Shown here: in pieces, positions 54,075 to 58,528 of the stretch
Numbering within the stretch: position 1 is the first letter of the stretch
How the letters are laid out: each line of letters starts with the position of its first letter
Assembly (NCBI RefSeq): GCF_013122565.1
Contig: NZ_CP053258.1
DNA from: Escherichia coli
GTDB taxonomy: Bacteria; Pseudomonadota; Gammaproteobacteria; Enterobacterales; Enterobacteriaceae
DNA length: 64,000 nt
Reading direction: 5' to 3' (one strand)
Notes under the pieces: generated by a model
Databases searched by the model: none
What the model was told of the DNA's origin: nothing
The model's input: only the letters and a program-made list of their open reading frames with translations
Position numbers and translations under genes: made by a program

Positions 54075-55631
54075 TTACCACTGCGGCGTATACGGTTTCT
54101 TCAGCCAGCGAACAAAATCGTCCAGCGGTAACGGGCGACTAATCCAGTAGCCTTGCATGAAATTAACGCCGCGTTCGCTTAGCCATCGCGCCTGTTCCGG
54201 CGTTTCGACCCCTTCAGCAACCGTCAGCATATTGAGGCGTTTCGCCAGCGTCAGCACCGCGTCAAGTACGGGGGAAGTGATCGTTTCCGTACCGATGGCG
54301 TTGATAAATCCACGGTCAATTTTCAGATAATCGAGCGTAAAACGCTCAAGATAGATAAGCGCGCTGTGCCCGGTGCCGAAGTCATCAATAGCAATTTCTA
54401 CGCCGACCGAGTGCAGCCAGGCGAAGAGTTGTGTGGCTTCTTGCTCTTTCAGCATATCGCGCTCGGTAATTTCCAGCACAATCTGGAAATGGTGTGCGGG
54501 CAGGGAAGTGAGCAGTTTCTGGATATCTGCTTTAAAGCTTTCGCTGTGCAGATGGTCCGGCGCAATGTTAATACCAAATTTGACGCCTACTGGCAGCACT
54601 TTTTCTAATTCTGCGGCATCGCGGGCAATTAACTCAAACAGGTGCTGAGTCAGCGGCACAATCATCTTTTGCGATTCGGCAAAGTTAATGAAGGCATCCG
54701 GGGGTATTTCTCCCGCGACAGGATGCCGCCAGCGTAGCAGTACTTCCAGGCCCGTTACTCGCAAAGATTGTGTATCCACCACCGGTTGATACGCCACGTA
54801 AAATTGTTCGCGCTTGATGGCGGTCATGATTTCTCTGCCGGGGCGCATACGTACGCTCATCAGGTAATAGCAGAGCAGGCCAACGACAGTTCCACTCATG
54901 CCGCCCAGTAAAAATGCGTACCACACATCGTTCCATGTCCAGTCATCTGCATAAAGCCGAACGGTCAGAGGAATGCCCGCAATTTTAGTTTCACGGACCG
55001 GCATGTCGGTTAATTCATTAACGTTCATCAAACGTGAAGAAAAGGTAGATAGCGCAGTATTGCCAATAATGAGGGCGACGCCATCGTAATCTTCCTGCCG
55101 TGAACTATAAAAGAGTGAAGGCGTCAGGTTGAGATTCAGAGCGGCAAAGACGCCGCTATTTTTCAGCAAAGGGTTGCGATACCAGATGACGATTGCGGGT
55201 TTGTTCGGCACCATCGGCGTGCCGGGTAAGATCGCCATATCGACGTTTTTATTAATGTCGAGCGCAGGAATCAATTCATTGAGTGGAATGTCCATCTCAC
55301 CGGTCGCAGATGAACAGAATGTTTTTTTATCTTTCACCAGCACAAACGTACGGACATTCATGCTAAACGCCGCGCGAGCGGTCAGTTCGGGGTTAGCCTG
55401 CTGGCAGGTATCTAAGGTCAGCGGCTGAAGCCGGTCAGTAGTGGATTTCAGGTCGGCAAAATAGGTATCGAGATACTTTTGTACGTCGGTAATCAGTGTG
55501 TCGTATTTGACTTCGTGCTTATGCCAGGCTACTAAAAACTGAAGGCAGCTCACCAGTATCGCAATCATCACGCCTGCAACAATGCAGGTAAGCAGGAGCT
55601 TACGTCCAGAATTGGGAGCGCGTATGAACAT
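54075..55631 (-). CDS. rtn: EAL-domain c-di-GMP phosphodiesterase Rtn (PdeN), 518 aa
   Basis: N-terminal TM/periplasmic domain, EAL motif region (EVLLRW), 518 aa. Confidence 0.9.
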   Translation of the reverse strand: MFIRAPNSGRKLLLTCIVAGVMIAILVSCLQFLVAWHKHEVKYDTLITDVQKYLDTYFADLKSTTDRLQPLTLDTCQQANPELTARAAFSMNVRTFVLVKDKKTFCSSATGEMDIPLNELIPALDINKNVDMAILPGTPMVPNKPAIVIWYRNPLLKNSGVFAALNLNLTPSLFYSSRQEDYDGVALIIGNTALSTFSSRLMNVNELTDMPVRETKIAGIPLTVRLYADDWTWNDVWYAFLLGGMSGTVVGLLCYYLMSVRMRPGREIMTAIKREQFYVAYQPVVDTQSLRVTGLEVLLRWRHPVAGEIPPDAFINFAESQKMIVPLTQHLFELIARDAAELEKVLPVGVKFGINIAPDHLHSESFKADIQKLLTSLPAHHFQIVLEITERDMLKEQEATQLFAWLHSVGVEIAIDDFGTGHSALIYLERFTLDYLKIDRGFINAIGTETITSPVLDAVLTLAKRLNMLTVAEGVETPEQARWLSERGVNFMQGYWISRPLPLDDFVRWLKKPYTPQW

Positions 55632-55811
55632 GATTCCGTTAATTTCCTGAAATTACGACAACATTTAAAAGATAACAATGACCGGACTATAGCCTGGATC
55701 AAGACGCGGAAACATCATTTTCTCTGATGAATGAAAACAAAAAAGCACTGCCTAAGCAGTGCTTTCAGTTAACTCGTCAGGATAGCCAAGGGATTGCATC
55801 CAAACGGTTTA

Positions 55812-56378
55812 TTAGCTGCGGCTGAGAACCCGGCGTGCTTCGTTGTAACGCTTCTTCCAGTACGGTTCATTCATGCTGGAAATAATAACACCACTGCTGG
55901 TGGAAGCATGGACAAACTGATTGTTGCCGATATAAATACCGACATGGCGTCCTGTTGAACCGGCACGGAACAGAACTAAATCACCCGTACGCAAATTACT
56001 GCGAGAAACAGATTTACCCATTTCCTGCTGTTCGTAAGTCGAACGCGGAAGTTCTAAGCCAAATTGCTCACGGAATGTACGCTGTACGAAACCAGAACAA
56101 TCGATACCTTTTTTAGTGCTGCCGCCCAGACGATAGCGTACGCCTTTCCAGTCAGCATACTGATCCATAATTCGCGATTTTACGTCGACATTACGAACCA
56201 GGTTTTCAAATTCATCCTGAGAAGCTTGCAGTGATGATGTTTCACTACCCACTGCACGTGTCTCAGGATGCATATTCTTTGCGGTGTTATTTGCACTACA
56301 TGCAGAAAGCAGAACCGCTACTGCAATCGCGGGGATCCCGCGCAAGATATATCTCAAAATCGGTTGAGATTTGACCAT
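55812..56378 (-). CDS. mepS: peptidoglycan DD-endopeptidase MepS (Spr), NlpC/P60 lipoprotein, 188 aa
   Basis: lipobox LLSAC, NlpC/P60 catalytic region (DCSGFV). Confidence 0.94.
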
Positions 56379-56789
56379 GTTGTTTGTTTTCCCTTGAAGT
56401 CCTTAACGACAAATATCGTTATAAAAAAATGCCAAGCGACACGAGACTAATTACCTGGGCATGTTGAAACAATTCCTTAAGGCCAAATCTGTGGACTAAC
56501 GCACAAAATTATATGCTGTGAGGATAATCTACCGCCGAGGCAAAACGAGTTCGAGATTACCCGATTGGTGCGGTCTTGGCGAGCGGTTTTACATGATTTT
56601 TTATAAGAAAAAGTGATACAGAAAGTTAATAAGCGGGATTGGTCAATTAAAGTACGATTGAGTGAAACGCATGCAATCCATTCATTTACTTAGAGAATGA
56701 TTTTTGCTTTCGATGGATGAAAGCACGGTGCGCATCATCAGGATTATCCTCACTATAAAAATAAACCTGATGATGTTAATTACTGTGAG

Positions 56790-57503
56790 TTATTTGTTTT
56801 GGAAATGTTTGTTTTTTCCCGGTAGTGATTTGTCAAAAAAGGTGATTAATCGATCACTTAATGGCGTCAGCAACACCCAGGGCAAACCGATCAATATCAC
56901 GGTCATCGAACCGACAATGATGTCAGTAAACCAGTGTGCGCCAATCATTACTCTGGGAAACGCAAAAACCACAAAAATAATAAGGGCGATAAGACCTGCA
57001 GCTTTGCCGAAATAACGCCACATGAATGCCGAAAAAATAAGCAGCATCATGCCGTGATCGCCGGGAAAGCTATCTCGTGAGGCATCTTTCGTGGGGACAG
57101 AGAGCAGTTCGCTGACGCGGTTAATATCGGTAAAAGTCAATGTTGGGCTGGCCCGTTTTACTGGAATTAATGCCTGACCCAGCTGGTTTAATACCACTGC
57201 AGTTAATAGCATGACCAGACCAATAATCACGATACGTCGTCTACCTGGAGCGTTTTCTTTCAGCCAGAAACTCAGCATCAACATTCCCATCGCCAGCAGT
57301 GAACAACCGTCGAAAGCGCGATTGTTGGTCAATGCAACCAGCCATAAAAAGGCCTTACTTTCGACCAGTTTCTGATTAAAGAAATAAAAAATATCCGCAT
57401 CAATCGGCAACCAGAACCCATGATTAACGGGAATATACCAGGAAAGAAACAGCGCGAGGCCGACAATATTCAACAACACTATTTGCGGCAAATTTTTAAT
57501 CAT
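56790..57503 (-). CDS. lpxT: lipid A 1-diphosphate synthase LpxT (YeiU), PAP2 family, 237 aa
   Basis: MIKNLPQIVLLNIVGLALF; start trimmed from track ORF. Confidence 0.9.
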   Translation of the reverse strand: MIKNLPQIVLLNIVGLALFLSWYIPVNHGFWLPIDADIFYFFNQKLVESKAFLWLVALTNNRAFDGCSLLAMGMLMLSFWLKENAPGRRRIVIIGLVMLLTAVVLNQLGQALIPVKRASPTLTFTDINRVSELLSVPTKDASRDSFPGDHGMMLLIFSAFMWRYFGKAAGLIALIIFVVFAFPRVMIGAHWFTDIIVGSMTVILIGLPWVLLTPLSDRLITFFDKSLPGKNKHFQNK

Positions 57504-57541
57504 ATTTTCTCTAATTATCTTACTGAAAAACGCAGGCAACC

Positions 57542-58528
57542 TTACGCGGTAGTCGCTAAACGAAGCTTCAACAGCGCGCTCTGCAAGGCATTCCAGTCAG
57601 CTTCGCTGCTGGAAATCAGCTCAATACGACTGTCCGGTGGCGCAACGTTTTGCGTTTCAATGTGCAGGTCATCGCCCTGACGGTTGATTCGCACCAGCCC
57701 TTCGGGAATACGCAGCACGCCTTTGACGCGTTCCACCGGTGCAAGTCGCGCCCATTCCAGAATTCCAATGGTGTCGAATACCGTATCAGCGTCGAATATC
57801 CAGCCGCAGGCCTGATATCCTTGCCCGCTGTTCAGACTGCGACGCCAGCGTTGGTGCTCTGGCAGGCTTAACGCTGCTAACCCTTTTTTCACGCCATGCT
57901 GATGAGAATGCGCGGCGCTGGCGGGCAACTCGGCTAAATTGCGACGCGGCAAATCCAGAAGATGACCGTCAACTTTCCCATGCTCACTGTGAATTAATTG
58001 CCGATCGCCACCATTTTGCTGCCACCAGCGCTGTAGCGCTTGCTCACTTTCGGGCGTCGCACGGTCGGATTTATTGGCGACAATAATGTCTGCGGCAGCC
58101 AGCTGGTCACGGAAGTTTTCATTGCTGGCGCTTTTTTCGTCCAGCAGCAGGCGTGGATCGAGAATGCACAACGTGGCGCGTAGATCTATCCACGGTTCAT
58201 AGACTGGCGCGGTTAAGAGATCGAGGATCTGTTTCGGATGGCCCAGCCCGGTCGGCTCTATCAACAAGCGGTCTGGTTTTCCCTGACGCAGTAAGGTATT
58301 CAACCCTACCTGCATGGGTAAACCATTAACGCAGCACATGCAGCCGCCGGGGATCTCTTTCAGCAATGCGCCGCTATCGGCGAGCAAAGCACCATCAATT
58401 CCGACTTCCCCAAATTCATTAACCAGTACCGCCCATTTTTCGTTGGGATCTTTATGGGCTAACAGATGAAGAATCGACGTAGTTTTCCCGCTGCCGAGAA
58501 AACCGGTGATGAGGTTGGTCCTGGTCAC
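57542..58528 (-). CDS. yeiR: zinc-binding GTPase YeiR (CobW/COG0523 family), 328 aa
   Basis: Walker A GFLGSGKTT, CxCC motif (GGCMCC). Confidence 0.92.
   Translation of the reverse strand: MTRTNLITGFLGSGKTTSILHLLAHKDPNEKWAVLVNEFGEVGIDGALLADSGALLKEIPGGCMCCVNGLPMQVGLNTLLRQGKPDRLLIEPTGLGHPKQILDLLTAPVYEPWIDLRATLCILDPRLLLDEKSASNENFRDQLAAADIIVANKSDRATPESEQALQRWWQQNGGDRQLIHSEHGKVDGHLLDLPRRNLAELPASAAHSHQHGVKKGLAALSLPEHQRWRRSLNSGQGYQACGWIFDADTVFDTIGILEWARLAPVERVKGVLRIPEGLVRINRQGDDLHIETQNVAPPDSRIELISSSEADWNALQSALLKLRLATTA

Follow-up and report, generated by a model that had tools for sequence, protein, structure and literature searches.

In elongation, the cell wall is opened mainly by the peptidoglycan endopeptidase MepS, and the amount of this enzyme is critical. 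Studies of mepS to date have dealt with proteolysis by NlpI-Prc and, more recently, with repression by OxyS. Upstream of mepS in Escherichia coli lies a long gap that follows the stop codon of lpxT, and we asked what this gap contains. The analysis covered a 64-kb stretch of E. coli DNA (the window), in which the gap and the genes on either side of it are placed as follows.

55812-56378, minus strand: mepS, with its ATG at 56378-56376.
56379-56789: the lpxT-mepS gap, 411 bp.
56790-57503, minus strand: lpxT, from the end of its stop codon (56790) to its annotated start (57503).

We read the gap as an ordinary composite regulatory spacer, made up of the lpxT 3' end and a mepS control region with two sigma-70 promoters, and we put the probability of this reading at about 0.85. 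Tandem promoters and an OxyS-targeted RBS are already published for this gene, and nothing found here is new in kind. What is added is a set of conserved cis elements with exact coordinates, in which a palindrome phased to the P1 promoter is the best lead to a transcriptional regulator of mepS. For specialists, the elements to consider are this palindrome, a UP-like block, a leader hairpin with its U-tract, and a Pho box in relatives of E. coli.

The preliminary description of this DNA had reported a gap free of credible ORFs, 410 bp long, between the mepS start at 56378 and the lpxT stop at 56790. The coordinates and the non-coding nature of the gap are confirmed, and its exact size is 411 bp. 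The genes here lie on the minus strand, with yeiR upstream and pdeN downstream, and the G+C content falls to 28-43% in the gap. The gap DNA is present in 5425 of the 5426 complete E. coli genomes at an identity of 95-100%, and the RefSeq annotation of the 5425 genomes places no feature in it. In the 50 kb around it in K-12, only one of some 36 intergenic gaps is longer. The gap is core E. coli DNA, and it is real and no chance ORF desert.

Published start-site data for mepS, all obtained in K-12 under few growth conditions, can be placed directly on this strain. Five substitutions separate the strain from K-12 MG1655 across the gap; all of them fall within the 152 nt nearest lpxT, and there are no indels. 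Because the proximal 259 nt are the K-12 sequence exactly, the K-12 start maps transfer base for base. Two promoters are defined in this way.

56582-56577, minus strand: P2 -35 hexamer, TCGCCA.
56559-56554, minus strand: P2 -10 hexamer, TAATCT, after a 17-bp spacer.
56547/56546, minus strand: P2 start.
56472-56467, minus strand: P1 -35 hexamer, TTGTTT.
56449-56444, minus strand: P1 -10 hexamer, TAGTCT, after a 17-bp spacer.
56437, minus strand: P1 start, a G.

The supplement of Mendoza-Vargas (2009) gives a start of spr (mepS) at -169 from nine reads of 454 sequencing, with a -35 of cCGCTCGCCAag / CGCTCGCCA and a -10 of gGGTAATCTcg / GGTAATCT separated by a 17-bp spacer. In the supplement of Kim (2012), spr starts at 2267942 (NC_000913.2), supported by 188 reads and leaving a 5'UTR of 59 nt; the upstream 51-mer listed there ends in ...TAGTCTCGTGTCG. 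The starts at -169 and -59 were dissected as P2 and P1, with promoter knock-outs described, by Elgrably-Weiss et al. (RNA, 2024). The sources lie 1 nt apart on the P2 start, which gives P2 a leader of 168-169 nt, and P1 has a leader of 59 nt; the major mepS start is the one about 59 nt from the ATG. The arrangement of both promoters is that of sigma-70 promoters, with the P2 start 7-8 nt and the P1 start 7 nt downstream of the -10 and with spacers of 17 bp. According to the account of Thomason (2015) cited in Elgrably-Weiss et al. (2024), P2 is more active in exponential phase and P1 is stronger in stationary phase. The locus is the same as that of the published P2/P1 and OxyS-mepS work, and the starts, the hexamers and the 11-nt OxyS site all map exactly. 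The A/T block, the palindrome, the leader hairpin and the lpxT-proximal part described below are not discussed by Elgrably-Weiss (2024), Mendoza-Vargas (2009) or Kim (2012).

In the alignment of relatives, the conserved pieces of P2 are CTCGCC and GGTAATCTC, and those of P1 are AATTGTYT and GTAATTAGTCTC. A generic promoter and terminator scan returned one promoter-like and two terminator-like matches, which is no more than the yield from shuffled sequence, and it missed P1 and P2 because each matches fewer than 9 of the 12 hexamer positions. As a separate observation, P1 and P2 share GGTAAT(TAG)TCTCG around and after the -10 (56444-56455 and 56553-56561, minus strand), and this shared motif gives each of them a conserved CG-containing discriminator. 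Speculatively, the shared discriminator hints at common control, possibly stringent (ppGpp/DksA).

The extent of the control region was assessed by comparison across species. A MepS protein scan gave 80 Enterobacteriaceae loci, 79 of which have yeiR-lpxT-mepS synteny and a gap of about 410-440 bp, and the upstream regions were aligned. Identity was scored to E. coli, and the four-fold degenerate sites of mepS served as the neutral yardstick. The mean identity and the share of columns that are at least 95% conserved are given for each segment below.

mepS four-fold sites: mean identity 0.51, conserved columns 12%.
59-nt leader: mean identity 0.89, conserved columns 68%.
P1 core: mean identity 0.74, conserved columns 46%.
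P2 start to P1: mean identity 0.65, conserved columns 18%.
P2 core: mean identity 0.70, conserved columns 35%.
-79 to -38 of P2: mean identity 0.79, conserved columns 45%.
56700-56627: mean identity 0.54, conserved columns 8%.
56789-56701: mean identity 0.41, conserved columns 0%.

Within Escherichia alone, 63 of 163 columns are variable in the distal part, as against 17 of 248 in the proximal part. This conservation gradient indicates that function is concentrated in the proximal ~250 bp, with a boundary near 56626. Judged from the alignment, the distal ~160 bp evolves near-neutrally and is best assigned to the lpxT 3' end, not to the mepS leader. The distal third (56789 to about 56627) would thus hold the end of lpxT, a stem-loop without a U-tract and then a weakly constrained spacer with a Pho-box remnant, and the proximal ~250 bp would be the mepS control region with P2 and P1 in tandem.

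The control region begins with a conserved block directly upstream of P2.

56585-56626, minus strand: upstream block CTTTCTGTATCAC-TTTTTCTTATAAAAAATCATGTAAAA (CTTTCTGTATCAC..TTCTTATAAAAAATCATGTAAAA), at -79 to -38 of P2.

The block is near-invariant, and it lies at a fixed distance of 47 bp from the P2 -10 in 60 of the 62 scored sequences. It carries phased T5, A6 and A4 tracts at -64 to -40 of P2, preceded by CTGTATCAC, which is invariant at -73 to -65. UP elements are A/T-rich and act at this distance (-57 to -38), as in the growth-rate-regulated rrnB P1. The likeness to UP elements and to phased A-tract regions of the rrnB P1 type lies in the A/T-tract block at -57 to -38, in the fixed distance to the -10 and in the promoter served, P2 being most active in exponential phase. 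The match to the UP consensus NNAAAWWTWTTTTNNNAAANNN is only partial, however (read directly, about 9 of its 14 specified positions agree), and a UP element does not account for CTGTATCAC being invariant farther upstream. We infer that the block acts as a UP element, which would suit a growth-phase promoter; P2, which sits behind it, is the exponential-phase promoter and produces the 168-169-nt leader. When the block was compared by eye with the motifs for LexA, IHF, Fis, the marbox, OmpR, RcsB and sigma-54, no convincing match was seen.

The 59-nt leader is the most conserved segment, and it carries two elements ahead of the start codon.

56404-56421, minus strand: leader hairpin UAACGAU-AUUU-GUCGUUA, present in the MFE and centroid folds.
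56391-56401, minus strand: OxyS pairing site GACUUCAAGGG, at -23 to -13, overlapping the Shine-Dalgarno region.

Directly before the hairpin, UUGGCA-U6/7 is invariant. Over 66 distinct sequences the stem of the hairpin is invariant, and its loop changes freely. For the apical pair, 36 sequences have U-A, 12 have U-G and 7 have C-G, and the alignment fold of the leader shows this kind of compensatory change at a single pair. The OxyS site accounts for 11 of the 59 leader nucleotides and is invariant except for U/A changes at -20 and -19. All 11 of its nucleotides are complementary to OxyS nt 25-35, CCCUUGAAGUC, as read directly from the K-12 oxyS sequence; folding of the OxyS-leader RNA duplex gave uninformative long-range structure and was set aside in favor of this direct reading. 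Elgrably-Weiss (2024) reported that OxyS loop A pairs with the RBS region (G37-G47 in the short mRNA, G146-G156 in the long), and that regulation is lost on mutation and regained when OxyS G30C is combined with mepS C(-18)G. The G30/C-18 register of the pairing derived here agrees with these mutants. The same study found that the short mRNA is better translated and more strongly repressed by OxyS, translation of the long mRNA being 5.6-fold lower and its response to OxyS weaker.

On this evidence, both mRNAs share the near-invariant 59-nt leader, with its U-tract, its small hairpin (which may have a role of its own) and its RBS region. OxyS pairs with 11 nt of the RBS region, so repressing translation and lowering the mRNA level, and its site is less accessible in the long mRNA. 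A hairpin followed by U7 at 56462-56423 was also considered as an attenuator and was rejected, its 5' arm being unconserved in other genera. Beyond the leader, the centroid fold contains a further hairpin over mepS codons 3-10 (AUCUCAA-CCGAUU-UUGAGAU, 56370-56351, minus strand). Across 67 sequences, six of its seven pairs reach an invariance of at least 96%, with synonymous sites and a rare AGA arginine codon among them. This suggests a constraint at the RNA level, either on the initiation of translation or on the signal-peptide region.

Between P2 and P1 lies the element that seems most likely to bring a regulator to mepS.

56490-56505, either strand: palindrome TGTGCGTTAGTCCACA, of the type TGTG-N8-CACA and the form TGTGCG-N5-SCACA.

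TGTG-N8-CACA occurs once in the 64-kb window. The palindrome is present in all 81 sequences compared, with 41 different centres; invariant arms around a variable centre are the mark of an operator bound by a dimeric protein. Measured from its centre, the P1 -35 is 25.5 bp and the P1 -10 is 48.5 bp away in each of the 81 sequences, and the P2 -10 is 61.5-67.5 bp and the ATG 116.5-119.5 bp away. Because the distances are fixed to P1 and variable to P2 and the ATG, the palindrome is phased to P1 at the DNA level. With the P1 start at 56437, the centre falls at -60.5 of P1, and it falls at about +50 of P2, that is, within the P2 transcript.

One alternative is that the palindrome and the leader act mainly as RNA, for instance through a hairpin or anti-Shine-Dalgarno sequence in the P2 mRNA that masks the RBS and the OxyS site. 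UGUG and CACA are able to pair, the MFE fold joins AGUCC, the palindrome centre in E. coli, to GGACU of the RBS region, and such masking would fit the 5.6-fold lower translation and lower OxyS response of the long mRNA. However, the centre that would do the pairing is the variable part of the element, with its 41 variants, and a 4-bp stem is weak. Moreover, the spacing is exact to the P1 hexamers and varies by up to 3 nt relative to the RBS and ATG; the exact distance to the hexamers points to DNA-level phasing with RNA polymerase. We therefore consider action mainly at the RNA level unlikely, and prefer a DNA operator for P1.

In class I CRP promoters such as lac P1, the site TGTGA-N6-TCACA is centred at -61.5. 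The palindrome agrees with TGTGA-N6-TCACA at 8 of 10 core positions, and all TGTG and CACA bases are invariant. It resembles class I CRP sites in being a 16-bp dyad with A/T-rich flanks, a variable centre and a rigid spacing to the hexamers, and in belonging to a promoter reported to be stronger in stationary phase. It differs from them in that the centre is at -60.5, not -61.5, and in that the fifth base of both half-sites is off-consensus (C and C/G, not A and T) in all 81 sequences. The literature and supplements searched contained neither ChIP nor expression evidence that CRP acts at mepS, and a ChIP-exo supplement lists spr among the sigma-70 promoters only. The palindrome resembles a class I CRP-type operator and is a candidate for the site of an unrecognised mepS regulator; from its sequence and phasing, it most likely binds a dimeric CRP-type activator. 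Such an activator would boost P1, the source of the 59-nt leader and the stronger promoter in stationary phase, and might impede P2.

Upstream of the boundary near 56626, the following features were found.

56733-56775, minus strand: lpxT 3' stem-loop, with arms CATCATCAGG (56775-56766) and CCTGATGATG (56742-56733).
56706-56723, minus strand: Pho-box-like remnant CTTTCATCCATCGAAAGC, matching CTGTCAT-N4-CTGTCAY at 9 of 14 positions.
56673-56687, minus strand: AAATGAATGG..TTGC, moderately conserved and downstream of the Pho-box position.

The stem-loop has a 10-bp outer stem and an inner helix, and the 90 nt past the lpxT stop, which contain two hairpins, fold at -28.7 kcal/mol. A strong stem-loop occurs 15-30 nt past the lpxT stop in every genus examined, with stem sequences that differ by genus. 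In Klebsiella, Kluyvera, Siccibacter, Atlantibacter, Buttiauxella and Cedecea, and only in these six genera, the stem is followed by a canonical U-run, as in Rho-independent terminators, whose stable G+C-containing stem the lpxT stem-loop also shares. The hairpins of E. coli, in which the stem is followed by CGCACCGUG, and of Salmonella, Citrobacter and Enterobacter differ from such terminators in having no U-tract after the stem. The segment 56733-56775 is best read as an lpxT 3' hairpin, and it may serve in termination.

The missing U-tract makes some read-through plausible in E. coli, and this bears on a second alternative, in which one mepS leader spans the whole 410 bp, or lpxT and mepS share a transcript, with regulatory RNA structure throughout. 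A consensus-like TTAACA-N16-TATAGT at 56779-56752 would also suit this alternative; however, one such promoter-like match is within the shuffled yield (1.8 expected), and it is gone in E. albertii. The starts mapped by Mendoza-Vargas (2009) and Kim (2012) are at -169 and -59 only. The distal 160 bp has diverged like synonymous sites. The folding energy is also unexceptional, with z of -1.0 for the short mRNA and -0.6 for the long one with its 169-nt leader, and a permissive Rfam scan of 55500-57600, with matches taken up to E 10, returned only eukaryotic miRNA and snoRNA noise at E values of at least 0.37, far under the gathering scores. A single leader or co-transcript over the whole gap is thus very improbable. 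The preliminary description had suggested an extended regulatory region or 5' UTR. The regulatory region stands, with elements up to about -250, and so does a fairly long leader, of 169 nt; a 410-nt leader does not. Of the checks proposed there, conservation holds in the proximal ~250 bp and is lost in the distal ~160 bp, which is near the synonymous-site level, and structure prediction gave unremarkable overall folding energies, with no Rfam match. A start within about 50 bp of the mepS start codon, with no upstream regulatory elements, had been named as the finding that would speak against the suggestion. The dominant start, at 59 nt from the ATG, comes near that distance, and the upstream elements are nonetheless clear.

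In the composite-spacer reading, the remaining distal feature of interest is the Pho-box-like stretch. Pho boxes of PhoB-activated promoters such as pstS and phoA have the form CTGTCATAWAWCTGTCAY, in which two CTGTCAT repeats 11 bp apart replace the -35. Repeats of CTGTCAT-N4-CTGTCAY matching at least 11 of 14 positions are present in 53 of the 80 species, and in nearly all of these 53 they lie at -340 to -347 from the ATG; Escherichia has only 9 of 14. In other genera, an nnAAAT element lies downstream of the repeat. Eight loci of Citrobacter, Phytobacter and Leclercia (L008, L010, L012, L020, L026, L033, L034 and L041) have perfect boxes, about 341-343 nt upstream of mepS (locus position ~2160) and orthologous to 56723-56706. 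In these three genera and many others, the likeness to the pstS and phoA boxes lies in the perfect or near-perfect box, its constant position and the nnAAAT that follows. The differences are that the box is about 12 bp, not 10, from the putative -10, and that the E. coli match is 9 of 14.

These comparisons suggest that in most Enterobacteriaceae mepS is under PhoB control and that the box has been lost in Escherichia. PhoB control of mepS in E. coli was rejected, the box being degenerate there and the mepS shift in the supplement of an E. coli PhoB study being marginal, at -0.6 log2. The Pho-box-like stretch is a relic in E. coli and a lead in other genera. The moderately conserved AAATGAATGG..TTGC may derive from an ancestral distal promoter, as its -10 and start region; for E. 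coli, neither the Kim (2012) nor the Mendoza-Vargas (2009) list has a start at 56673-56687. A GCTTTC/GAAAGC hairpin at 56725-56705, which overlaps the remnant in this strain, was discarded: it is broken in K-12 (GAACGC) and is unconserved.

A wider proposal, which we hold only tentatively and at less than even odds, brings the palindrome and the Pho box together. An Enterobacteriaceae-wide regulator, cAMP-CRP being the likeliest and another CRP/FNR-type dimer the alternative, would directly control mepS P1 via the palindrome and switch expression from P2, as a UP-driven growth promoter, to P1 at entry into stationary phase, and PhoB would add control via the distal Pho box in most genera outside Escherichia. 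If true, synthesis of the main elongation endopeptidase would be tied to carbon and phosphate status.

The coding content of the gap is slight. The ORFs of at least 25 aa that touch it are plus-strand ORFs of 26-32 aa and a 103-aa ORF with a TTG start (56704-57015, plus strand), which runs antisense to lpxT as the preliminary description had noted. This 103-aa ORF does exist, intact in E. coli only; it is shortened to 73 aa in E. albertii and to at most 43 aa in Salmonella, Citrobacter and Enterobacter. An 18-aa sense ORF (ATG at 56738, with GAGGA upstream) is frameshifted or stopped in other Escherichia. A Pfam search with the small ORFs and the 103-aa antisense ORF gave no match, and as genes they were rejected, being unconserved and without Pfam matches. 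That the gap hides an unannotated gene, for a small protein or an independent small RNA, is hardly credible: the 18-codon and 103-codon ORFs and a weak hairpin followed by U7 at 56442-56423 could be cited for it, but the first ORF is not kept within Escherichia, the second is cut in E. albertii, neither matches Pfam, the 5' arm of the hairpin is unconserved in other genera, the Rfam matches are noise, and none of the 5425 RefSeq genomes carries an annotation there.

Three minor observations concern the neighbouring genes. The mechanical ORF of lpxT begins at a TTG at 57539 (minus strand), 36 nt upstream of the annotated ATG at 57503, and the lpxT start reported by Kim (2012), 28 nt upstream of the ATG at about 57531, supports the annotated ATG. 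The supplement of the same study lists a start of rtn (pdeN) at 2268505 (NC_000913.2), 243 nt upstream of pdeN. It corresponds to about 55874 on the minus strand, inside the 3' part of the mepS coding sequence, and pdeN accordingly has its own promoter there. Finally, a Pluralibacter MAG (L076) has no lpxT, and about 625 bp separates its yeiR and mepS. It keeps the whole proximal mepS control region, together with the hairpin and a Pho-box-like stretch, so that the regulatory region goes with mepS rather than lpxT.
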